Sequence record: CP099787.1
Origin: a plasmid
Reading direction: 5' to 3' (one strand)
Length of the DNA stretch: 64,000 bases
Numbering within the stretch: the first letter of the stretch is position 1; every line of letters begins with the position of its first letter. Positions 199 to 33,687 of this stretch are shown here, piece by piece. Made by a program: the position numbers and the translations under genes. Under the pieces are notes generated by a model, which saw only the letters and a list, made by a program, of their open reading frames with translations, was not told the origin of the DNA and did no database searches.

Positions 199-623
199 AG
201 TTTGACACTCCTCAAGAGCTGTGGATAAACAAAAGATGAAAAAATTGTAGCACTTTGATGCATTTTTTTTAAATTTCATTTTAGTTCTTTTGGAAATATT
301 TATATTTTTATGTTCAAAATAGTTGTGTAACTATAGTTTTTACATATATTTCAATAACATAAATCAAAAACTTTCTGTTTTTATAAAATAAAGTCGGTTA
401 CTCCATATATATTATTTAAAAACAAGTTCTTACATTGTTTTTATGGGTTTATTGGTTAACTTTAAATAAAATGAAAGTTAACACCTATTTCTATTTATAT
501 ATTAATAACATATAACAGTTTATAGATCATAAAAGTTAACCATATTTACCTAGTGTTTTATCCACTCAAAACCTTGCACCATAAAGGCTTGAGCTAAAAG
601 CACCGTTAGGTGCGTGGTGTGTG

Positions 624-2250: not shown

Positions 2251-2748
2251 TTAAGCAATTTTCTTAATTTTGCTACTAGTTTTTACCTTTTCATTTCCGT
2301 ATTTTGCTCTAAGCTCGTCCATATCTTTGTTTCCTCGTCCTCTGCATTCTGTACCTACATATATCCAAAGTTTTCTAGCATGTGCCCATTTTAAACCAGC
2401 CTCTTTTAATGCTTCCTTATGCGCTTTTGTATTGCCTGAAACATATAACCATAGCCCTATTCTCTCAATCTCTAACCCATCCAAGATTTCTATCTTTTCT
2501 AAAACTTCTCTCAATCGAATTTCTGCTTCAATTTCTTCATCTCGGTTTTTAAAAGTAGATTTCTCTGAATAGTTACTGTCTGCCTTTTTATTAATTAGAA
2601 CTTTTAATAGCTGCTCATATTCTGAATTTATGGCTTGCATATTTTCAGTCGAGCCGCCCATGTCTGGATGATGTTTAAAGCAAAGTTTACGGTATTCTTT
2701 CTTTAAATCATCAAGGTTGTTTACATCAGAACTAAACCATTTTTTCAT
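2251..2748 (-). CDS. J-domain (DnaJ-like) protein
   Basis: The N-terminus carries the HPD motif ...YRKLCFKHHPDMGG.... The true start is probably the ATG at 2748 (MKKWF), because the ORF-track start lies inside the conserved leader. Confidence 0.7.
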   Translation of the reverse strand: MKKWFSSDVNNLDDLKKEYRKLCFKHHPDMGGSTENMQAINSEYEQLLKVLINKKADSNYSEKSTFKNRDEEIEAEIRLREVLEKIEILDGLEIERIGLWLYVSGNTKAHKEALKEAGLKWAHARKLWIYVGTECRGRGNKDMDELRAKYGNEKVKTSSKIKKIA

Positions 2749-2783
2749 TTTGATCTCCATAAGCTTTTCAGCTCTAATTTTTA

Positions 2784-3098
2784 TTATTCACAATTCAAGA
2801 TAGTGTAATGATTTTCACAGATTAGACGAAAATTATTAGTAGCAATTTGAGCGGCATCCTCTATAGAATTAGATGTAAAATCTAAAATTCCATCTATCCG
2901 ATAATTTGAAACTGGACCATATTTACAATCAATAAATACAATTGAGTCATCAATTTGAGTAATGAAATAAATAGTGTCATTGGCTACTAAATGTTTTGGA
3001 TTTTGTGGTGATTCTGAGAAAAATATCCCATGTTCTTTTCCACATGCAGAAATTAAATTTCTGAAGTAATTAAGGGCAATTTTTGTATAAATTTTCAT
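2784..3098 (-). CDS. hypothetical protein
   Basis: The ORF-track N-terminus MKSDRLISIYELKSL is simply the conserved leader translated. The real start is the ATG at 3098 (MKIYTKIAL), 7 nt after the aagg SD. Confidence 0.55.
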   Translation of the reverse strand: MKIYTKIALNYFRNLISACGKEHGIFFSESPQNPKHLVANDTIYFITQIDDSIVFIDCKYGPVSNYRIDGILDFTSNSIEDAAQIATNNFRLICENHYTILNCE

Positions 3099-3103
3099 AG
3101 TAC

Positions 3104-3150
3104 ACCTTAAGCTTTTCAGCTCATATATAGAAATCAGCCTATCCGACTTC
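3104..3150 (-). promoter_or_regulatory. conserved structured 5' leader (HP1 + HP2-SD)
   Basis: gaagtcggataggctgatttc ... gagctgaaaagcttaaggtg, with a G-U wobble in the HP1 stem. Confidence 0.55.
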
Positions 3151-3236
3151 ACCCCTTAATTATACTATATTCTCATGTCTTTTTATTAAGAAAAAACATA
3201 TATTTAGTGTATTTTTTCGTGTTATAAAAGACATTT

Positions 3237-3661
3237 GCAGAGCAACGTGTCCACGTTGCGAACTGATGAAATTTGCGAGCATCCCCCTCCTTGATTACCG
3301 TTTCAAACTTCGAGCGAGTCAGTCAAAATCTGTGATTTTGACTAGACGACCGAAGAAGTGAAACTTCTCCCATTGGACCTTATCCGGTAATAACAAAGCA
3401 ATCCCGCAGGGTTGCGACAAATAGCCCTCTAAATCGCTCTAATTGCCCCTAGATTCAATTTTAAAGATAAACAGCATCCGATCATGCTGCGTTAGGGATG
3501 TTGCCAGTAAGGGGCGAAATACAAGCGTAAAAAAAGAGGATTTGAATCGAGTATTAAAATCAGGTTCAGGCTTTGCATGAAACTAGATTTTAAACTCGAT
3601 GGATCCTCTTTTTCGCTTGGAGTTCGAGCGAAGCCAACTAGCCCGGCCCGTAGGGAACGCC
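3237..3661. repeat. about 425-bp GC-richer, highly self-complementary repeat, copy A (full length)
   Basis: Near-identical to 9018-9442, with a single mismatch. It contains multiple perfect inverted repeats (caacgtgtccacgttg; gtcaaaatctgtgattttgac; aagaggat..atcgagt/actcgat..atcctctt). There is no convincing ORF. Confidence 0.8.
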
Positions 3662-3689
3662 CATAAAAAGATTAAAAAAAAATCAAGTA

Positions 3690-4080
3690 AGATTATTTTT
3701 TACTTTATAAAGCTCAAAAATTTCTTTCGTATGAAGCTGCTCATAATCAAAAAATAGAACTTTATTTTCTCTCGCTTTTCGTACTTCATCAACTTTACGT
3801 CTAAACACCATATTTTTATTGCATAGATAGTCAATCTGTTTGTAAAAGTCACTTTCTAATTCATTAAAAGAATCTGTATCTGATAGATATAGAATTTTAT
3901 TTTTTAAGCTTTTTAAACCTACTGAACCTTAATTTTCACCTACTAGATATCGCCTACAATATTCTTTTTGATGCACATTAGAATAGTGACCACAACCAAT
4001 AAAATTAATAAGATATACAACCACTTGCCTAAAATTATTTTCAACATATTTAAATTATCAATCGAAATTTTCATCTTTAA
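3690..4080 (-). pseudogene. degenerate coding remnants: a 43-codon hydrophobic ORF (MKISIDNLNMLKIILGKWLYILLILLVVVTILMCIKKNIVGDI) followed by about 70 in-frame codons with no start
   Basis: Minus-strand reading frames are too short or lack a start, and the region sits between repeat copy A and the next gene. Confidence 0.25.
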
Positions 4081-4090
4081 ATCCTCATGG

Positions 4091-4103
4091 TTGCGGATCC
4101 GCA
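4091..4103. repeat. degenerate copy (13/14) of the TTGCGGATCCGCAA palindrome
   Basis: The sequence here is ttgcggatccgcat. Confidence 0.4.
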
Positions 4104-4167
4104 TCACTTGAATATTTACCTCTATCGAGAGATTAAATGCGGGCCTCCGTTGGGAAGCCCCTAAAGT

Positions 4168-5376: not shown

Positions 5377-5388
5377 ATTAATCACCAT

Positions 5389-5432
5389 AAGCTTATCAGC
5401 TCAAATTTTGAAGTTAGCCTATCCAACTTCCT
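5389..5432 (-). promoter_or_regulatory. conserved structured 5' leader (HP1 + HP2-SD); compensatory HP1 stem variant gaagtt/aacttc
   Basis: ggaagttggataggctaacttc ... gagctgataagcttatggtg. Confidence 0.55.
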
Positions 5433-5484
5433 TTAATTATTATACATCAAAAACATATTTTTGTTTTAATATAAATTTAATTTT

Positions 5485-7077: not shown

Positions 7078-7083
7078 AATATT

Positions 7084-7128
7084 CACCTTAAGCATTTCTG
7101 CTCATTTGAAACCAGCCTATCCGATTTC
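7084..7128 (-). promoter_or_regulatory. conserved structured 5' leader (HP1 + HP2-SD)
   Basis: gaaatcggataggctggtttc ... gagcagaaatgcttaaggtg, with a G-U wobble. Confidence 0.55.
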
Positions 7129-7199
7129 TCCTTTTAATTATAACATATTCTCGACCACTTACAAATTTATTAACGCAATATAAACAAACACTTAAGCAT

Positions 7200-7277: not shown

Positions 7278-7637
7278 ATGGCTTGGGATGTAGAAACAAC
7301 AGAACTTTTTGATTCTTGGTTGGCAGAACAAGATGAAAATGCTCAAGATAAAATCTTAGCGTCTTTGCTTGTTTTGTCAGAACTGGGGCCAAATCTAGGC
7401 CGGCCTCATGTTGATACTATTAAAGAATCAAAATATCCGAACATGAAAGAGATACGTGTGCAAGTTAAAGGTCATCCGATCCGTGGTTTCTTTGCATTTG
7501 ATCCAGAACGTAAAGCCATTGTTTTGTGTGCTGGAGATAAGAAAGGGCTAAATGAAAAAGCCTTTTATAAAGAAATGATCAAGATTGCAGATGAACAATA
7601 TGAGCAATATTTACGTGATAATTACGGAGATAAATAA
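7278..7637 (+). CDS. higB: RelE/ParE-superfamily toxin (HigB-like 'addiction module killer')
   Basis: A 119-aa product placed upstream of an HTH antitoxin, with a 1-nt ATGA overlap onto the next gene. The sequence pattern is typical of this toxin family. Confidence 0.6.
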   Translation: MAWDVETTELFDSWLAEQDENAQDKILASLLVLSELGPNLGRPHVDTIKESKYPNMKEIRVQVKGHPIRGFFAFDPERKAIVLCAGDKKGLNEKAFYKEMIKIADEQYEQYLRDNYGDK

Positions 7638-7936
7638 TGGCTAAATTAAACGATATAATTTCAAAACGCTCACCTGAAAGCCAACAACGCATCAAGAAAA
7701 TGGCAAATCAAATGCTATTGGATATTAACCTCTCGAACTTACGGGAAGAGTTAAAAATATCTCAAGCTGAAATTGCAAAAAATCTAGGTGTAAGCCAAGC
7801 TGCTATTTCAAAACGTGAAAAATTAGGTAAAGATCTTAAGATTTCATCATTAAAAGAATATGTTGAAGCTATGGGTGGCAAAGTAAGGTTAGATGTTGAG
7901 TTACCTAACGGAAAGCATGTTGCGATATCTATTTAA
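7637..7936 (+). CDS. higA: HTH (XRE-type) antitoxin, HigA-like
   Basis: The helix-turn-helix motif is LKISQAEIAKNLGVSQAAISKREK. A 99-aa product translationally coupled to the toxin. Confidence 0.6.
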   Translation: MAKLNDIISKRSPESQQRIKKMANQMLLDINLSNLREELKISQAEIAKNLGVSQAAISKREKLGKDLKISSLKEYVEAMGGKVRLDVELPNGKHVAISI

Positions 7937-8394: not shown

Positions 8395-8883
8395 TTATAA
8401 ATTATTTTTCATAACCGAGTAAGTATATAACTGCTCCCAAGCCTCTAGTTTTAAAAACATCAGTGCTTTTTCATATGTAGCACCCTTAATATACATCCCT
8501 CCATCCTTGATCAATCCCTCTGACAAATTTTTCTCTATTTCATTTTGAGGTTCTAAATGCTCTTTTTTTAGGAAATCAATATGTTCTTGAATCACTAGGT
8601 TAAAGTTAATGCCTATATGGTTTAATCTTTCAGTCTGACTTAACTGATCATCATTTAAATCATAAGTAGTTAAAAAAGCTATCTCCTTGCTTCTAGCTAC
8701 ATTATGTTTTGCTACCGCAATGTAAAGTGAATGGCCTGTGACAATATTTGTGATTTTAGAATAATATGATTCAGGAAAATCTTTAATCAATTTCTTAGCA
8801 TTTGGATCTGTTGGCAAATTTTTATAATTTAGTTCTACAAATAGATAATTGTTTTTAAAACTTCTGTTTAAATTCATTTTCAT
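8395..8883 (-). CDS. hypothetical protein (about 162 aa)
   Basis: The ORF-track N-terminus is the translated leader; the true start is probably MKMNLNRS at 8883. Confidence 0.55.
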   Translation of the reverse strand: MKMNLNRSFKNNYLFVELNYKNLPTDPNAKKLIKDFPESYYSKITNIVTGHSLYIAVAKHNVARSKEIAFLTTYDLNDDQLSQTERLNHIGINFNLVIQEHIDFLKKEHLEPQNEIEKNLSEGLIKDGGMYIKGATYEKALMFLKLEAWEQLYTYSVMKNNL

Positions 8884-8886
8884 ACT

Positions 8887-8932
8887 CCATAAGCTTTTCA
8901 GCTCATCTATAGAAACCAGCCTATCCGATTTC
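8887..8932 (-). promoter_or_regulatory. conserved structured 5' leader (HP1 + HP2-SD)
   Basis: gaaatcggataggctggtttc ... gagctgaaaagcttatggag. Confidence 0.55.
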
Positions 8933-9017
8933 ACCCCTTAATTATACTACATTTCATGTCTTTTTATTAAGAAAAAACATATATTTAGTGTATTTTTTCG
9001 TGTTATAAAAGACATTT

Positions 9018-9442
9018 GCAGAGCAACGTGTCCACGTTGCGAACTGATGAAATTTGCGAGCATCCCCCTCCTTGATTACCGTTTCAAACTTCGAGCGAGT
9101 CAGTCAAAATCTGTGATTTTGACTAGACGACCGAAGAAGTGAAACTTCTCCCATTGGACCTTATCCGGTAATAACAAAGCAATCCCGCAGGGTTGCGACA
9201 AATAGCCCTCTAAATCGCTCTAATTGCCCCTAGATTCAATTTTAAAGATAAACAGCATCCGATCATGCTGCGTTAGGGATGTTGCCCGTAAGGGGCGAAA
9301 TACAAGCGTAAAAAAAGAGGATTTGAATCGAGTATTAAAATCAGGTTCAGGCTTTGCATGAAACTAGATTTTAAACTCGATGGATCCTCTTTTTCGCTTG
9401 GAGTTCGAGCGAAGCCAACTAGCCCGGCCCGTAGGGAACGCC
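9018..9442. repeat. about 425-bp structured repeat, copy B (full length)
   Basis: Identical to copy A except for one base. The listed ORF 9273..9455 lies inside it and is rejected as coding. Confidence 0.8.
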
Positions 9443-9499
9443 AAAATATTTCCAACAGATATTAAATTATTGTGAAGACACCTGGCTAATTACCACACA

Positions 9500-11269: not shown

Positions 11270-11899
11270 TTATTTATTATCAACTTTTTCACAGTATGCT
11301 TTGATCTTTGCAAAGTCTTTATTTGATAGGTTTTCAATGTCATTAGACTTATGACCATTCTCTTTTAACCAGGTTTTGCAATCGACAACGATTTCTTTTG
11401 TTTCAACTGAAGAGTTTGATGCATGACTATTTGAAGAGCCGGACACGATCCAAGCTAACAACATCCAAGTCATCCAATCATTTGAAGATTTATACTTTTG
11501 ATGTTGTTCATGTTTAAATCTATCATAGCTGCTTAGGCTATTATTTTGCACCGGATACGGTTTTTGAACAGCTTGTTTTACTTCAGTACTTTTCACTACC
11601 GGTTTAACTGTTTTGGTTGTCGGATTAGATTTGGAGGTGGTATTAGCCACTGGTTTATATGTGGTGGTTGCTGAAGGTTTAGAAGGTGTGTAGCTTGGTT
11701 TACTTATGCTACTACTTGGTCGAGAAGTATAGGAGCTCGGAGAGCTTGAAGAATATGATTTACTACTCGATGATGATGAATACGAGCTTCTGCTTGATGA
11801 AGAGCTGTAACTAGATCTAGAAGCAGCATAGCTGGTAGAAACTAATGTTGAAACACTTAAACCAACTACAACAGCTTTAATAAAATAATTAATTTTCAT
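11270..11899 (-). CDS. secreted Ser-rich low-complexity protein (209 aa)
   Basis: Signal peptide MKINYFIKAVVVGLSVSTLVSTSYA followed by SRSSYSSSSS repeats. SD is aagagga. Confidence 0.55.
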   Translation of the reverse strand: MKINYFIKAVVVGLSVSTLVSTSYAASRSSYSSSSSRSSYSSSSSSKSYSSSSPSSYTSRPSSSISKPSYTPSKPSATTTYKPVANTTSKSNPTTKTVKPVVKSTEVKQAVQKPYPVQNNSLSSYDRFKHEQHQKYKSSNDWMTWMLLAWIVSGSSNSHASNSSVETKEIVVDCKTWLKENGHKSNDIENLSNKDFAKIKAYCEKVDNK

Positions 11900-18625: not shown

Positions 18626-19399
18626 TTAAACCCCCATTTTCTCTAAAACTAATTGATTAATTTTTTTGATTTTTCGCCCTACATCTTTTGCTGACGTTTT
18701 ATCAATTTTCCATACTGGAACTTGTTGTTCACTTGCATCAGCAATTGCAGATCGATTAGGTATGAAAGCAGTCTTATCAAGCATTAAATGACTCAGTTGT
18801 TTCTGCAATTCATTTAAAGTTGTTTTTTGAGTAACAGAGTTAGCACTAACCATATTTGGAAGCAGCCCTAGAAACTGAATTTTTGGGTTTACTTCTTTAA
18901 TTTCTTGTGTGGTATCAATAATACCTCTTAGCCCTAGAATTGAATATTTATCCAATAAAAAAGGAGATAGAGCAAATTCAGAAACTAACAAAGGTAATCG
19001 CTGAAACGGGCCGTCTGTAGGAGGTGTATCAAAAATACAGATATCAAAAAATTCGTTAGCCTTAGCAATATTTGATTTGAAATTACGTTGGTATTCTTCA
19101 ACTTTATCTAGCTTAAACTCTTGTTCTGTAGGATCAAAAAGTGATTTTAAACTCTTATTACCTTTAAAAAGAACAAAATATTTATCTAAAGTTTCAAAGT
19201 TTTGGATATCCGTAAATAGACTATGGGTATCTTTAATCTCAACCGCAACTTTACTAAGTGAGAAACCACTATTACCTTGTTTATCCATGTCTACAAATAG
19301 AACACGCATACCGCGCTCATAACAGTAATGTGCCAAATGAACAGCAACAGAGGTTTTGCCAATCCCACCCTTTTCGTTAGTGATTACGATTTTTTTCAT
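18626..19399 (-). CDS. parA: ParA-family partition ATPase
   Basis: The deviant Walker A motif is KGGIGKTSVAVHLAHY. A 257-aa product preceded by the conserved leader. Confidence 0.85.
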   Translation of the reverse strand: MKKIVITNEKGGIGKTSVAVHLAHYCYERGMRVLFVDMDKQGNSGFSLSKVAVEIKDTHSLFTDIQNFETLDKYFVLFKGNKSLKSLFDPTEQEFKLDKVEEYQRNFKSNIAKANEFFDICIFDTPPTDGPFQRLPLLVSEFALSPFLLDKYSILGLRGIIDTTQEIKEVNPKIQFLGLLPNMVSANSVTQKTTLNELQKQLSHLMLDKTAFIPNRSAIADASEQQVPVWKIDKTSAKDVGRKIKKINQLVLEKMGV

Positions 19400-19591: not shown

Positions 19592-20369
19592 TCAATCATT
19601 AATTAAAATGAAATTAGGCACATAATCTTCAGCTTTATGTACAATTTCCTTTAATTTTTGACTATGCAATTTTATGTCCCACCCTTTTACGTAATACATT
19701 AAGCTACACCAGCATTCACGATACTTTAACTTGAGGGTATCACCAACAAAAATACGGCAAGGCACTGCCCACAAACTTAGTTGTATATAACACATTAAAG
19801 CAACGTTTCTATCAATGTCTGCTGCCTCAATATACAAGTGATCTTGCACTTGTATCTTAGATTCCAAACAGAGTTTTACAGTTGAAAGTAAAGTTGAGCC
19901 AGCTCCACAAGCTGGATCGGAAATCGAAATCACCCCCTCTTCCTCAAGTTGGTTTTTTAAGGTCGGTCATTACAACTTGAGCACATAAATTTGATACCTC
20001 ACTTGGTGTAAAATATTGGCCGATATGATCATTCCCAATTTCTAATTCCATGTAAATGCTACCTAACACATCATATGGCTCACCCTTTGCTTCGCATAAA
20101 TCCACCAACAGATAAAACAATTTTTTTATTTTTAAACGTCCACTAACGTCGTAACGATTGATACGTTGAAGATATTCATTTTCAATATTGTGGTTAAACA
20201 AATTTTGATATCTATGACCAATTGAGTTTCTTAATGCTGCTGCTGAACAAAAAACAAAGTCATGAAATATTTCATAAATGTTTTTAGATTGGTCGATACT
20301 TTTTAAGGTATGTATAAACTCACTTTTCAAAACACTATAAGTTTTACCAATGTTAACTTTTGAATTCAC
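19592..20369 (-). pseudogene. N6-adenine DNA methyltransferase-like gene, split into two ORFs and lacking a recognisable catalytic NPPF/Y motif
   Basis: The ORF 19944..20369 contains GQYFTP (HsdM/N6-MTase motif X). The ORF 19592..19933 contains DPACGAGSTLL (AdoMet motif I). The two frames are separated by a stop/frameshift near 19933-19944, and an HP2-SD leader lies upstream. Confidence 0.55.
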
Positions 20370-20895: not shown

Positions 20896-20900
20896 TTTTT

Positions 20901-20948
20901 CACCATAAGCTTTTCAGCTCAAAATACGAAATCAGCCTATCCGATTTC
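20901..20948 (-). promoter_or_regulatory. conserved structured 5' leader (HP1 + HP2-SD)
   Basis: gaaatcggataggctgatttc ... gagctgaaaagcttatggtg. Confidence 0.55.
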
Positions 20949-21057
20949 TAACCCCAAAATTGTAATACAATGATGTATTTTAATCAAGATCTTTAAACGT
21001 TAATATTGTTAAAAAACATTAATTTAATGAAATATATTTTCGAATTAAACATTACTA

Positions 21058-21237
21058 ACAGAGCAACGTGTCCACGTTGCGAACTGAAGGAATTTGCGAG
21101 CATCTCCCTACTTGATTACCGTTTCAAACTTCGAGCGAGTCAGTCAAAATCTGTGATTTTGACTAGACGACCGAAGAAGTGAAACTTCTCCCATTGGAGC
21201 TTATCCGGGAGTAACAAAGCAATCCCGCAGGGTTGCG
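21058..21237. repeat. structured repeat, truncated copy C (about 180 bp, about 93% identical to the 5' part of copy A)
   Basis: It runs from acagagcaacgtgtccacgttgcg to gcagggttgcg. Confidence 0.75.
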
Positions 21238-21377
21238 CTTCTAAATTGCGAATCTAATTGATTTTAGGTTCATCCACTCTAGTTAATTAATGGAACTGAC
21301 AGCATTTTTTAATATTCTAGTGTGTTAGGGATAGATATACTTACCTACACCTACTTTAAAAATCACATAACACATGT

Positions 21378-23302: not shown

Positions 23303-23307
23303 TCAAT

Positions 23308-23356
23308 TCACCTTAAGCTTTTCAGCTCATATATAGAAACCAGCCTACCCGATTTC
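23308..23356 (-). promoter_or_regulatory. conserved structured 5' leader (HP1 + HP2-SD)
   Basis: gaaatcgggtaggctggtttc ... gagctgaaaagcttaaggtg. Confidence 0.55.
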
Positions 23357-23442
23357 ACCCCTCAATTATACTACATTTTCATGTCTTTTTATTAAGAAAA
23401 AACATATATTTAGTGTAATTTTTCGTTTTATAAAATACTTTT

Positions 23443-23669
23443 GCAGAGCAACGTGTCCACGTTGCGAACTGATGAAATTTGCGAGCATCCCCCTCCTTGA
23501 TTACCGTTTCAAACTTCGAGCGAGTCAGTCAAAATCTGTGATTTTGACTAGACGACCGAAGAAGTGAAACTTCTCCCATTGGACCTTATCCGGTAATAAC
23601 AAAGCAATCCCGCAGGGTTGCGACAAATAGCCCTCTAAATCGCTCTATTTGCTCCTAGATTCAATTTTA
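23443..23669. repeat. structured repeat, truncated copy D (about 227 bp)
   Basis: Near-identical to the 5' half of copies A and B, including the same upstream flank. Confidence 0.75.
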
Positions 23670-32460: not shown

Positions 32461-32497
32461 CTATACTAAAAAAAATCAATCAAAGTGCTGCAATTAT
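32461..32497 (-). promoter_or_regulatory. conserved promoter/operator motif (TTGCAG-N17-TAGTAT with spacer GCACTTTGAT), copy 1 of 3
   Basis: taaaaaaaatcaatcaaagtgctgcaatt on the plus strand. The same motif occurs upstream of rep and of the tra operon. Confidence 0.5.
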
Positions 32498-33687
32498 TGA
32501 ATTGGAACTTTTAATTTGAATTTGATGGTAATTTTTAATTCTTCAGATTCATTAAAATCATAAATGTGCTCATCTAAAATAATAACGATTAAAGAAGCAA
32601 TGAAGCAGGCTAATATCTGATTTTGGGCATTGTCACATAACTTTTTTAATTCTGATAAATGCATTATTGCAGCTTGTACTTTTATGCCTTGAAGCCAACG
32701 GAGAACGCTTCTGTACGATACTTGAAGTAATTCTGATATATAGGTTTTAGTTTTACCAGAACGCAATAAACGCGCAGCCGTGCGCCTCATTTCAACATAT
32801 TTATCGGATTTTGCACGTCCACCTTTCTTTGCTTTAATATGTTGCCTTTCACAAAACTCTTGAAAGCAGTAGCTATCTTTTTTCCAACAATATTTTGCGA
32901 TTGATTTTGCTGTAGCACAAACTTCTGAATATGGTAGCGGAACGCTAAAATTCTTATTTGCATTTATTAATAAGCTTTTTACATGATCAAACCACTCAAC
33001 AAATGTTTTACTTCTATAACTTCTAATGTCGATATATGCTTGATGCCGTATTTCGTTAAATAGATGATCATTACGGCCGTTAATTACAAATTTCTCTATA
33101 CCGGGTTTTTCTGAATTTATATTTCTGTATTCATGTGGCTTAAGTTCTAAATGTTCAACAAGTTCATGCAATGAATACTTTTCTAATCGTGGTACTTCTA
33201 CAATCCATTTTTCATGTGCAGGATTCTTTGCTATTAGTCCCACGTACTTGCTGTCACCTTTTAATACTTCAGTGAGCTTTTTAGAAACTGAATTATAAAA
33301 TTCTTGAGCTCTCTTGCTGGAACTTTCAGTAAAACTTACTGGAGCTTCAAGTTCATAGTAAAAATGGCAATGAGTATTTTCTGGATTAACTACAATTAAA
33401 TTTGGTACTGGAATATTGTCATCAAAATCATACCGCCAAGCTGTTGCTGCGCCTGGATAATCAGCATCAATAACTATATATCTTTTAAAATTCGGATGAT
33501 TAATTTGTATATGTGAGTGACGTATAGCTTGTTTCTTGTCACGAATCTTTAATCCGAAGAAGTCACTGGTACAGTAAGGTTTTTTTGGTAGGTTTTCATA
33601 TAATCTATTGATTATAAAGTCTTTTTTAGAATTTAAATTAACAGAGTTTACAGTCATAAGTATGCCCATTGTACAATTTGGACACAC
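32494..33687 (-). CDS. rep: plasmid replication initiator, replicase-family with PriCT-like C-terminal region
   Basis: A 397-aa product. The C-terminal block LPYSEVCATAKSIAKYCWKK fits the primase-C-terminal pattern, and the N-terminal region resembles replicase-family Rep proteins. Its position next to the partition genes fits a rep gene. Confidence 0.6.
   Translation of the reverse strand: MCPNCTMGILMTVNSVNLNSKKDFIINRLYENLPKKPYCTSDFFGLKIRDKKQAIRHSHIQINHPNFKRYIVIDADYPGAATAWRYDFDDNIPVPNLIVVNPENTHCHFYYELEAPVSFTESSSKRAQEFYNSVSKKLTEVLKGDSKYVGLIAKNPAHEKWIVEVPRLEKYSLHELVEHLELKPHEYRNINSEKPGIEKFVINGRNDHLFNEIRHQAYIDIRSYRSKTFVEWFDHVKSLLINANKNFSVPLPYSEVCATAKSIAKYCWKKDSYCFQEFCERQHIKAKKGGRAKSDKYVEMRRTAARLLRSGKTKTYISELLQVSYRSVLRWLQGIKVQAAIMHLSELKKLCDNAQNQILACFIASLIVIILDEHIYDFNESEELKITIKFKLKVPIQ

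Follow-up and report, generated by a model that had tools for sequence, protein, structure and literature searches.

A structured, oriented repeat element of Acinetobacter conjugative plasmids and its possible role as a single-strand signal

Repeat units and their surroundings

The window (the whole stretch of DNA that was analysed, 64 kb) belongs to an Acinetobacter baumannii RepAci6 conjugative plasmid of the pACICU2/pAb-G7-2 type. It contains two full copies of a repeat, A (3237-3661) and B (9018-9442), each of 425 nt and with a single difference at 3506 (A/C); their identity reaches 64 nt further left, into the neighbouring linker. Two truncated copies, C (21058-21237) and D (23443-23669), show 95.6% and 99.1% identity to copy A over their own lengths. 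The element has 45.4% GC, and its two 1-kb flanks have 30.7% and 30.3%. A linker of about 85 nt is common to A, B and D, and C is without that linker. The open reading frame at 9273-9455 is spurious: it begins beyond the repeat, and in copy A the corresponding frame has a stop at its very beginning. The near-identity of A and B, the truncated copies, the GC excess, the shared linker and the spurious reading frame had all been claimed in an earlier note on this DNA, and our analysis agrees with it on these points. A HigB/Gp49-HTH toxin-antitoxin pair is located between copies A and B, which are 5.8 kb apart.

A covariance model of the core of the element, run with filters off, gave exactly four matches in 64 kb, all on the + strand, with scores of 188-195 bits (187.6 bits for copy C) and E values of about 1e-41 to 1e-43, and the next best match had 13 bits. 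The 425-bp unit combines two modules, a widespread core of about 185 nt and a lineage-specific tail; the earlier note had missed this modularity. The coordinates of the features are listed in Table 1.

The same DNA segment was recorded in 2013 in the RepAci6 plasmid pAb-G7-2 as "423/424 bp repeat units", with two full units and a 229-bp partial copy mapped and without functional analysis (Hamidian et al. 2013; PMC3956371). The units were treated there as repeats which confused assembly and which flanked a 4.7-kb segment. The repeat units of pAb-G7-2/pACICU2 are also on record in a paper of 2019 (PMC6861863). These 2013 and 2019 mentions were all that a literature search for expression data or earlier functional analysis returned, and plasmid sRNA data were not found in the transcriptome and interactome papers of strain AB5075. 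The fourth copy, the core/tail modularity, the fold, its strand, the relation to oriT and the spread to other plasmid families go beyond the 2013 record (PMC3956371).

Table 1. Positions in the window of the repeat copies, their parts and the neighbouring elements.
Feature	Position	Strand	Description	Basis
Inferred oriT nick region	600..623	+	GCACC-GTTA-GGTGC hairpin, then GTGGTGTGT|G	R388-like IR2 and nick architecture
Conserved 5' leader of downstream gene	3099..3158	-	Gene starts at ATG 3098-3096	Repeat families D2 and D3; alignment
AT-rich linker, ~85 nt	3150..3236	.	Contains the downstream gene's -10 TATAAT (minus strand, 3164-3159)	
Core of copy A, ~185 nt	3237..3421	+	Helices P1, P2-P3-P4 and P5	Covariance-model match 3235-3423, 194.5 bits; covariation, wobble count
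P1 hairpin	3238..3265	+	CAG-a-GCAACGTG / loop / ACGTTGC-gaa-CTG, then invariant GCGAACTG	Helices 1-2, 99-100% paired
Unpaired conserved tract	3283..3300	+	C/T-rich CCCCCTCCTT, then invariant TGATTACCG	Alignment columns 58-67 invariant; unpaired in consensus fold
Long hairpin P2-P3-P4	3300..3364	+		Helices 3-4, compensatory changes in 18/23 pairs
P5 hairpin	3398..3415	+	GCAA-t-CCC gca GGG TTGC, then GAC; core 3' boundary	Helix 5, compensatory changes in 7/7 pairs
Variable core-tail linker	3422..3488	+	Common to A, B and partly D; differs in related plasmid L002	Alignments
Tail module	3489..3661	+	In RepAci6-type plasmids only	nhmmer match to element positions 238-425 alone; alignment
Tail hairpin, long and imperfect	3527..3611	.	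Hairpin 3534-3606 between A7 (3527-3533) and T5 (3607-3611)	Folds
Copy B	9016..9442	+	Core 9016-9204, then linker and tail	Covariance model, alignment
Copy C	21056..21244	+	Core alone; upstream linker differs	Covariance model
Copy D	23441..23669	+	Core 23441-23629 and start of linker; without tail	Covariance model

Fold of the core and its strand

Among 48 distinct cores, 96.3% of the alignment cells were paired in the consensus fold and compensatory changes were found in 27 of the 40 pairs; none of 500 shuffles matched the observed value, and slid controls paired at 34-46%. For example, pair 12-21 of P1 changes from A-U to C-G in six sequences. The P2-P3-P4 hairpin has a conserved internal loop (AGCGAG / GACCG) and an A/T-rich top (CAAAATC...GATTTTG), and the apical loop of P4, CTGTG (3330-3334), is invariant. 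A column-wise search of the core alignment for further long-range helices found nothing but alternatives overlapping P5. Since the compensatory changes occur across backbones with different relaxase and T4SS types, selection on the fold is required. Wobble pairs were counted across the cores as G·T 56 times against A·C 10 times on the + strand, and therefore the folded strand is the + strand of the window.

Four hairpins had been named by the earlier note. Three of them are kept by covariation and correspond to P1, the top of P4 and the tail hairpin, but the fourth, gaagaagt-gaa-acttctc, is not conserved, and its bases fall in helices P2 and P3 of the covariation-supported fold. The extensive self-complementarity that the earlier note described is borne out by fold z-scores of -4.7 to -6.6 on both strands. 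Folded as ssDNA, the + strand reached -80.3 kcal/mol with z = -6.55, the best z-score of the DNA folds; folded as RNA, the - strand was better than the + strand. Among all 300-nt ssDNA segments of the + strand in the 64 kb, those at copies A and B are the most stable (-56 to -60 kcal/mol), more than 5 sd below the mean of -24.6 kcal/mol (sd 6.0). At these two copies the + strand is more stable than the - strand by 5-8 kcal/mol, while the average over the window slightly favours the - strand.

Tail, linker and downstream leader

The tail can stand apart from the core, as in the related plasmid L002 (23309-23492). In that plasmid the lower stem of the tail hairpin is wholly replaced yet complementary, and it includes two G·T pairs on the + strand. 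The tail hairpin looks like a two-way intrinsic terminator in the predicted folds, with seven U in the minus (gene) sense and five U in the + sense.

The -10 box TATAAT in the AT-rich linker is conserved in nine of nine leaders. On the + strand of the same linker, an extended -10 sequence TGTTATAAA (3220-3228) could possibly start an RNA at about 3235-3237, and this box gave no pass in the consensus promoter scan. The conserved leader which follows the TATAAT box is an element of its own, folding in the sense of the mRNA, a point that the earlier note had missed. The leader has a hairpin GAAGTC-GGATAGGCT-GATTTC, a GAGCTGAAAAGCTT hairpin and then the Shine-Dalgarno sequence, in this order. Read in the minus sense, the leader alignment has compensatory changes as well as G·U ones. 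Because the leader gives minus-sense wobbles and the core gives + sense ones, the wobble method does discriminate strands.

Promoter-like boxes and priming triplet

Sigma70-like hexamer pairs on the + strand of the core of copy A were limited to TTCAAA-16-CAAAAT and TTGACT-16-GAAACT, each with 8/12 matches and both in the long P2-P3-P4 hairpin. The pair TTGCAA-17-CAAAAT is found at the same place of the hairpin in 23 of the 48 distinct cores and is absent from the L5b/c types, in which the hexamer spacing shrinks to 13-14 nt; in RepAci6 the TTG was lost via a compensatory change. Scanning 3237-3661 with consensus models on both strands revealed no sigma70-like site and two weak terminator-like sites on the minus strand. 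The crude hexamer scan has no discriminating power, since the proven Frpo1 and Frpo2 of F also reach just 8/12 in it. The triplet CTG is invariant both in the apical loop of P4 (CTGTG) and after P1 (GAACTG). CTG is the template triplet of E. coli DnaG.

Transferred strand and gene geometry

An R388-like nick was placed at about 622/623 on the + strand by sequence match to the R388 nic architecture, which consists of 5-bp arms, a 4-nt loop, 9 nt to the nick and a purine after the nick (PMC4176350). In related plasmids, the genes for T4CP and the MOBF relaxase (Dtr) are immediately left of the oriT region. With the oriT nick on this strand, the transferred strand is the + strand, and the leading region would be everything above 623. 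All four cores of the window are on the + strand, 2.6 to 22.8 kb from the nick, and they sit 140-165 nt upstream of minus-strand genes, which are templated by the + strand.

The same geometry was observed in a MOBP backbone, L159, where the position of relaxase and NikA-like genes indicates an oriT at about 6.8-7.0 kb and the core at 11593(+) is upstream of a six-gene leading operon. Over all loci, the 5' neighbour is divergent in 41/58 and the 3' neighbour is convergent in 36/53, which puts the core between co-directional genes, on their template strand. Transferred-strand placement, found for four of four cores in the window, is not found for copies b and c of L005/L159. In L005, the cores at 3451(-) and 23596(-) are on the non-transferred strand, upstream of umuDC-type and topA-virB operons. 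Of the two cores of pNDM-BJ02, the copy at 20000(+), wedged between two gene ends, would also be on the non-transferred strand; the sequence of this plasmid has a palindrome near traA and no recognisable nick motif.

Distribution among plasmids

The core is present in at least three unrelated Acinetobacter conjugative backbones, with MOBF, MOBQ and MOBP relaxases. Among 72,556 plasmids of PLSDB, 365 records were matched by blastn in "distant" mode. Of these records 355 belong to Acinetobacter and 362 are conjugative or mobilizable, and none is an IncF or IncI plasmid. Plasmid p1AB5075 of strain AB5075 (NZ_CP008707.1) has three copies. Blastn against a phage collection gave no match to the element. 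When genomes were scanned with a loose 18-base pattern, 120 loci were obtained, mostly by chance, and nhmmer retained 16 of them: 14 from Acinetobacter and two on short MAG contigs that carry the labels Kurthia and Thiotrichaceae, probably through mis-binning.

Homology ends abruptly at AGAGC...GCGAC, and the flanks are unrelated between plasmid families. An IS end or MITE was not supported: AGAGCAA... and ...GTTGCGAC, the two ends, do not form inverted repeats, and the differing flanks show no target duplication. A remnant of a group II intron or retron, which the earlier note had considered, was not supported by the Rfam 15 scan of the window (0 matches at gathering score), and relaxed thresholds gave only noise (copy A at E<=10; two diverged homologues at E<=1). 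No tRNA or tmRNA was found by searches for them. A small minus-sense ORF (AAGGAGG...ATG) was rejected because its ATG and frame are missing in other families. Lagging- or leading-strand priming sites for the replication fork were rejected as a general rule, because the two-copy layouts face outward around rep in L159 and inward in pNDM-BJ02.

Possible function as a single-strand signal

We tentatively propose, at a probability of roughly 0.4, that the core might be a new functional analogue of the Frpo/ssi single-strand promoters or priming signals, not homologous to them. On the first-entering strand the core would probably start early gene expression or DNA copying in the new cell. The earlier note had offered a Frpo/ssi-like element and a structured ncRNA as explanations, and we keep both: the + strand fold, the transferred strand and the geometry agree with the first of them, but homology to Frpo and a Frpo-like architecture were not found. 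The arrangement of genes and strands fits the Frpo/ssi idea best.

The events would be as follows. After nicking at about 622/623, the + strand would enter the recipient with its 5' end leading, and every core would fold on it into P1, the long P2-P3-P4 hairpin and P5. We infer that RNA polymerase or primase may recognise the A/T-rich top of P4 and its CTGTG loop together with a TTG-type box at the hairpin base. Leftward RNA synthesis on the T-strand could then supply early transcripts of leading-region operons, a primer for the complementary strand, or both. When the DNA becomes double-stranded the fold would be abolished, and the ordinary TATAAT promoter before each conserved leader would take over. 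In RepAci6-type plasmids the tail hairpin (U7 in gene sense) might terminate the upstream unit, so that tail and core would make a stop-start cassette. A good ordinary promoter already exists before the downstream genes, and this counts against a single-strand signal.

In common with Frpo1/Frpo2 of F, ssi1-3 of ColIb-P9 and the class 1-3 promoters of pESBL, the element is non-coding and has 2-4 copies in the leading region, its window copies are on the transferred strand upstream of gene clusters templated by that strand, and its ssDNA fold is outstandingly stable. Such stability of ssDNA is the homology-free criterion used for new ssDNA promoters in pESBL (PMC12672017). The ssDNA promoters of F are GC-richer than the plasmid (PMC13478746), and the element is likewise GC-richer than its own plasmid. 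The near-identical copies A and B, about 5 kb apart, flank a toxin-antitoxin pair, which is like the layout Frpo1-flmAB-Frpo2 of F (PMC9849209).

There are also clear differences from Frpo/ssi. No sequence similarity was found. In our computation the Frpo of F forms a single hairpin about 320 nt long, its arms measuring about 150 nt, whereas the element has five helices in three domains, a large internal loop and an optional tail hairpin. Its promoter-like hexamers are weak and not universal, and some homologues are on the non-transferred strand. Its host genus is Acinetobacter, its backbones are MOBF, MOBQ and MOBP, and it is known from sequence alone.

The element can be compared with ssoA and ssoU of rolling-circle plasmids and with G4-type ssi. 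These are non-coding, structured and 150-300 nt long, are specific for one orientation and start RNA primer synthesis only as ssDNA. They show covariation in their stems and constancy in their short unpaired motifs. The element is similarly oriented, structured and non-coding, and its apical loop has the invariant CTG. Unlike sso and G4 ssi, it has no Rep or rolling-circle context, occurs in several copies per plasmid and follows the direction of the neighbouring operon instead of a replication origin, and its conserved motifs differ from CS-6 and RSB of sso.

RepAci6 and pNDM-BJ01-type plasmids spread OXA-23, NDM-1 and aphA6 in Acinetobacter. To our knowledge, the establishment of these plasmids in a new host is essentially unstudied, and we know of single-strand promoters proven so far only in enterobacterial IncF and IncI plasmids. 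The element is a candidate for the same ssDNA strategy in another genus with a different fold; its specificity for the transferred strand is seen in the window plasmid and, in a MOBP backbone, for one copy. The analysis also provides a covariance model for annotating Acinetobacter plasmids that carry the element, an inferred oriT nick site and transfer polarity of RepAci6 plasmids, and a defined set of probable early genes.

Alternative explanations

As the main rival, there is a real possibility that the core is instead the gene of a structured ncRNA on the + strand, transcribed divergently from the promoter of the adjacent operon and in antisense to the genes on either side. Its exposed C/U-rich tract and conserved loops would let such an RNA work in trans or in cis, with the leading-region regulon as one conceivable target. 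Covariation and the + strand excess of G·U suit RNA as well as ssDNA, but the + strand has its best z as DNA (-6.55) and the - strand is better as RNA. The unpaired conserved tract CCCUYCCYU resembles an anti-Shine-Dalgarno sequence, but predicted pairing of a + sense RNA with the eight conserved leaders did not exceed that with shuffled sequence (z of about -2 to +1). In RepAci6 a start at 3235-3237 from TGTTATAAA (3220-3228) would coincide exactly with the onset of conservation, while across families no promoter motif occurs at a fixed distance and the consensus scan of copy A was empty.

The tail hairpin with T5 could terminate an RNA of about 370 nt in the RepAci6 copies, and the L5b variants have a stem followed by TTTT in place of P5, but most families lack a + sense terminator and conservation runs 55 nt past the T5 tract. 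Copies on the non-transferred strand, too, are oriented according to the neighbouring operon, which a divergent promoter pair explains without ssDNA. In L004 and L062 an ORF follows closely downstream of the core on the same, coding strand; the core would thus be transcribed there in the + sense, which we count in favour of an RNA. On the other side, transcription of an antisense RNA gene would run into that of the co-directional genes around it, no Rfam family was matched, and the occurrence is nearly confined to conjugative or mobilizable plasmids. If the element is an RNA, it would represent a new plasmid-borne family of structured ncRNA, with three or four copies per replicon.

We regard as unlikely a wider form of the single-strand signal, in which the core would be a general sensor of single-strandedness on both strands of Acinetobacter conjugative plasmids. 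T-strand copies would then fire in the recipient for establishment genes, and their retained-strand counterparts in the donor. The retained-strand copies of the MOBP plasmids, upstream of the topA-virB transfer operon and a umuDC-type operon, would respond to the transient single-stranded state of that strand during transfer. DNA processing would in this case be coupled to gene expression in both partners by a fold unrelated to Frpo.

An element acting in the minus-sense mRNA, as terminator-insulator and long structured 5' or intercistronic leader which controls read-through, processing or stability between leading-region operons, seems quite improbable to us. At most loci the core does lie between co-directional genes, and in the pNDM type the upstream gene ends 14 nt from it without a terminator, so minus-sense transcription probably crosses the core. 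The minus strand also folds well, and both the tail hairpin and the L5b replacement of P5 terminate better in the minus sense (7 U). However, the 56 G·T pairs of the + strand would turn into A·C mismatches if read in the minus sense, both G·T pairs of the L002 tail stem are on the + strand, and the adjacent leader has minus-sense wobbles where the core has + strand ones. Most transcripts of the downstream genes would moreover omit the core, because a canonical TATAAT is downstream of it.

Functionless repeated DNA, a mobile-element relic or recombination scar kept by hitch-hiking and gene conversion, is a very improbable explanation: copies within a plasmid are near-identical, homology boundaries are sharp and recombination between copies explains the 4.7-kb segment absent from the first pACICU2 sequence (PMC6861863), but terminal inverted repeats, target duplications, a transposase and a match to group II intron, retron or other RNA families are all missing, and the reading is strongly disfavoured by covariation, with 27/40 compensatory pairs across differing backbones.

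Distribution of the repeat

The region 3150-3680 matched 365 plasmid records of PLSDB by blastn, 355 of them from Acinetobacter; the predicted mobility is conjugative for 351, mobilizable for 11 and non-mobilizable for 3. No match to the repeat was obtained by blastn of the phage collection. The best PLSDB matches were RepAci6-type plasmids with a MOBF relaxase and MPF_F, such as pAb-G7-2 (NC_025104.1) and p1AB5075 (NZ_CP008707.1).

The repeat itself has been noted before. In pAb-G7-2, Hamidian et al. mapped two units of "423/424 bp" together with a partial copy of 229 bp (PMC3956371), and the same group later showed that the first pACICU2 sequence lacked the 4.7-kb segment between two repeat copies (PMC6861863). 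They suggested neither function nor structure for it and did not mention copy C (PMC3956371; PMC6861863). The finding here is more general, namely a structured, strand-specific element that conjugative plasmids carry genus-wide and that is annotated in no database.

As the earlier note had seen, copies A (3237-3661) and B (9018-9442) are near-identical; their sole difference lies at 3506, and the identity extends 64 nt further left. C and D are indeed truncated, with 95.6% and 99.1% identity to A. The higher GC content (45.4% in the element vs about 30.5% in the flanks) was also found, and the reported self-complementarity is matched with folding far better than that of shuffled sequence on both strands (z -4.7 to -6.6). 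The ORF at 9273-9455 was rightly called spurious: its start lies outside the repeat, and a stop stands at the matching place in copy A. One proposed hairpin, gaagaagt-gaa-acttctc, was not conserved, its bases being the 3' strands of helices P3 and P2.

Between copy A and the next gene, about 500 nt (3662-4167) had no ORF of at least 60 aa and are unannotated in related records. Their composition is AT-rich and coding-like; they may hold small ORFs or the remains of a gene.

Core and tail modules

Diverged relatives show that the repeat has two modules. The core of about 185 nt (3237-3421) occurs alone in other plasmid families with about 70-78% identity: two inverted copies in pNDM-BJ01/02-type plasmids (MOBQ, MPF_T), three copies on both strands in pWE_H_1/pAb-D10a-a_1-type plasmids (MOBP, MPF_T) and one partial copy in small MOBQ plasmids. 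The tail (3489-3661) is confined to RepAci6-type plasmids, and in the related plasmid L002 it can stand 318 nt from a core. Species-representative genomes and metagenomes were scanned once each, and after filtering by nhmmer and then by covariance model 64 core copies were left, 48 of them distinct. The genomic copies are on Acinetobacter contigs of at least eight species and on two short MAG contigs, which are probably mis-binned.

Fold of the core and the folding strand

RNAalifold predicted 33 pairs, 21 with compensatory changes, from a MAFFT alignment of 33 sequences. P2 was added and P3 and P4 were completed by hand to give the covariance model R1, with which all copies were realigned and the pairs counted. 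In this alignment, which is fitted to R1 but agrees with the independent MAFFT/RNAalifold result, pairing was kept in 96.3% of 1746 cells and both-sided changes occurred in 27 of 40 pairs. The covariation score was 0.330 vs 0.112 in shuffles (reached by 0 of 500), and sliding the 3' partners by 1-3 columns as a control lowered pairing to 34-46%. The core structure is real. A natural deletion variant (locus L083, 2136-2292) has P1-P4 and P5 but is missing the CTCCC...CGGGA segment that separates P2 from P5 (columns 134-166), so this segment may be dispensable.

The + strand cells held 56 G·T and 10 A·C, several A·C coming from copies without a homologous P5. Some G·T pairs are fixed across whole families, for example at columns 4-31, 87-112 and 175-189. 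In the tail of L002 the whole lower stem was exchanged yet stayed complementary, with two G·T pairs, also on the + strand. As a control, in the neighbouring conserved leader (5' UTR) of the downstream genes both the wobble and the compensatory pairs belonged to the opposite sense, that of the mRNA. It means that the method separates the strands, and that core and leader are different things.

Features of the window and of the MOBP-backbone loci L005 and L159
Feature	Position	Strand	Remark
P1	3238-3265	+	consensus fold
Unpaired stretch after P1		+	consensus fold; ends in C/T-rich run and invariant TGATTACCG
P2-P3-P4 long hairpin	3300-3364	+	conserved internal loop; nearly invariant A/T-rich top; invariant CTGTG apical loop
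P5	3398-3415	+	consensus fold
TTCAAA-16-CAAAAT	5' arm of P2-P4 hairpin	+	8/12
TTGACT-16-GAAACT	3' arm of P2-P4 hairpin	+	8/12
Rep (Replicase, PriCT_1)	32494-33687	-	Pfam
KorB-like ParB; ParA	in window		Pfam
TelA, SNase-type nuclease, DUF1173, UmuC, J-domain protein, PAPS-reductase-like protein	in window		Pfam
Hypothetical and J-domain two-gene start after core	2251-3098; L005 17952-19277; L159 10126-11452	- (all)	MOBF and MOBP
Shared promoter/5' UTR	1674-1750, 2103-2183, 3100-3172, 5380-5452, 7078-7150, 8882-8954, 20898-20970, 23306-23378	minus-strand sense	eight operons
Palindromes	L005 about 19360-19375 and homologues; L005 flanks of 3451(-) and 23596(-)		candidate operators

Transferred strand and gene context

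The + strand at 600-623 reads GCACC-GTTA-GGTGC-GTGGTGTGT/G (slash, predicted nick). The 5-bp arms match those of R388 IR2 exactly and enclose a 4-nt loop; nine bases lie between hairpin and predicted nick, which is followed by a purine. The nick core, GGTGT, is F-like. This arrangement of arms, loop, spacing and purine was described for the TrwC nic site (PMC4176350). The surrounding interval 597-625 is the probable oriT nick site of RepAci6 plasmids. In related plasmids an accessory gene, the T4CP gene and the MOBF relaxase gene lie directly left of the nick region and are transcribed away from it. Because the relaxase carries the nick-made 5' end, DNA 3' of the nick enters first; by this order the + strand would be the transferred strand (T-strand), with the leading region upward from 623. 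The leading-region genes are nearly all on the minus strand, so the T-strand is their template. With this inferred polarity, the four cores belong to the T-strand, and their distances from the predicted nick are 2.6, 8.4, 20.4 and 22.8 kb.

Each core of the window lies 140-165 nt upstream of a minus-strand gene with the conserved leader. Over all loci, 41 of the 58 5' neighbours were divergent and 36 of the 53 3' neighbours convergent; the core thus usually stands on the template strand of the two co-directional genes that flank it. In locus L001 (NZ_CP017657, 21170-21233) the linker upstream of copy B is swapped for unrelated sequence with a terminator-like hairpin (aagaggttgtg-ttaa-cacaacctcttttt), so the core is kept without its usual linker.

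On the MOBP backbone, the relaxase gene (L159:5052-6125) and a gene for a NikA/MobC-like protein (Pfam) place oriT near 6.8-7.0 kb. By this placement core a of L159 (11593, +) belongs to the predicted T-strand and stands upstream of a leading operon whose six genes end with parA and parB. This operon and that downstream of copy A both begin with a hypothetical gene and then a J-domain (DnaJ-like) gene; core and operon seem to travel together across the unrelated MOBF and MOBP backbones. The other strand of the same MOBP plasmid carries two more cores, one upstream of a topA-virB operon and one upstream of an umuDC-containing operon. pNDM-BJ02 has one core in the usual geometry, and its second is wedged where two convergent genes end. 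These other-strand cores are the chief difficulty for a role confined to the T-strand. In donors, too, ssDNA accumulates (PMC9849209), which leaves room for function of copies on the retained strand.

The two pNDM-BJ02 cores (L003, 16229-16408, -; 20000-20179, +) are identical and, as inverted repeats of 180 nt, bracket a 3.6-kb six-gene block adjoining traD and the presumed oriT. They could pair together on ssDNA.

Possible function of the core

We tentatively read the core as a signal for single-strand initiation that would act like Frpo/ssi without belonging to the same family (probability about 0.42). With DNA parameters (300-nt windows, 50-nt step), the mean + strand fold was -24.6 kcal/mol (sd 6.0). 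The ten most stable + strand windows were all in copies A and B (best -56 to -60 kcal/mol), followed by copy C. In A and B the + strand was more stable than the - strand by 5-8 kcal/mol, whereas on average the - strand was slightly more stable. New ssDNA promoter classes in pESBL were found by the same homology-independent criterion and then confirmed by 5'-RACE (PMC12672017).

On the + strand of the copy A core, a scan in which the second hexamer had to carry A as its second and T as its sixth base gave only two sigma70-like pairs, both in the P2-P4 hairpin; with this filter off, three more pairs (8-9/12) appeared in linker and tail. TTGCAA-17-CAAAAT stands in the same columns of 23 of 48 cores, including predicted-T-strand copies of other backbones and the pNDM-BJ02 copy on the other strand, and is absent from the L5b/c core variants, in which the hairpin is shorter by 3 nt. 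If the 5' arm served as non-template strand, the -10 would lie directly against the apical loop of P4; RNA would start at this loop, and transcription would run leftwards to the genes. The experimentally proven Frpo1 and Frpo2 of F score at most 8/12 in the same scan, which thus has no discriminating power, and these weak matches are suggestive only.

The tail hairpin (3534-3606) lies between A7 and T5 and is followed in gene sense by seven U, so it should end incoming upstream transcription just before the core. L5b variants have a canonical minus-sense terminator (AAAACACCC...GGGTGTTTTTTT) at the position of P5 instead. In the gene direction, tail and core may be read as "end of one unit, start of next".

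The layout is also like that of F. There, Frpo1 and Frpo2 share 92% identity and enclose about 5 kb with the toxin-antitoxin locus flmAB, thought to guard the interval against deletion (PMC9849209). Copies A and B share 99.8% identity at a distance of 5.8 kb, and between them a HigB/Gp49-like toxin and HTH_3 antitoxin pair (7278-7936, +), on the strand opposite to all its neighbours, mirrors flmAB. The ssDNA promoters of F are GC-richer than the plasmid (PMC13478746), as is the element here.

A + sense ncRNA is the main rival and somewhat less probable. Such an RNA would account equally well for all the structural evidence; the RepAci6 copies have an extended -10-like box (3220-3228), from which it would begin exactly at the onset of conservation, and the tail hairpin with T5 could terminate it. 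A divergent promoter pair would naturally explain why orientation follows the adjacent operon on both strands, and the cores of loci L004 and L062 lie on the coding strand. But no promoter is conserved at fixed distance across families, most families have no terminator, conservation runs on past the T5 tract, and neither significant pairing with the conserved leaders, nor an Rfam match, nor a plasmid sRNA in the AB5075 transcriptome and interactome papers searched was found; moreover, the element is almost exclusively on transmissible plasmids. An element of the gene-sense mRNA, the sense of the seven U and the L5b terminators, is improbable beside the + strand wobble counts, and an inert repeat is very improbable beside the covariation; some probability is assigned to none of these readings.

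Other elements between core and operon

In other plasmids, perfect palindromes, namely CTTAGTCATGACTAAG and those of the GCTGCAAGCTGCAGC type, lie between core and downstream operon start, and look like repressor operators. Eight operons of the window have a common promoter and 5' UTR: a near-perfect TATAAT, then the hairpin GAAATC-GGATAGGCT-GATTTC with an invariant 9-nt loop, and after it a GAGCTGAAAAGCTT hairpin beside the Shine-Dalgarno, with compensatory and G·U changes in mRNA sense. This shared 5' UTR suggests a post-transcriptional regulon in the leading region.
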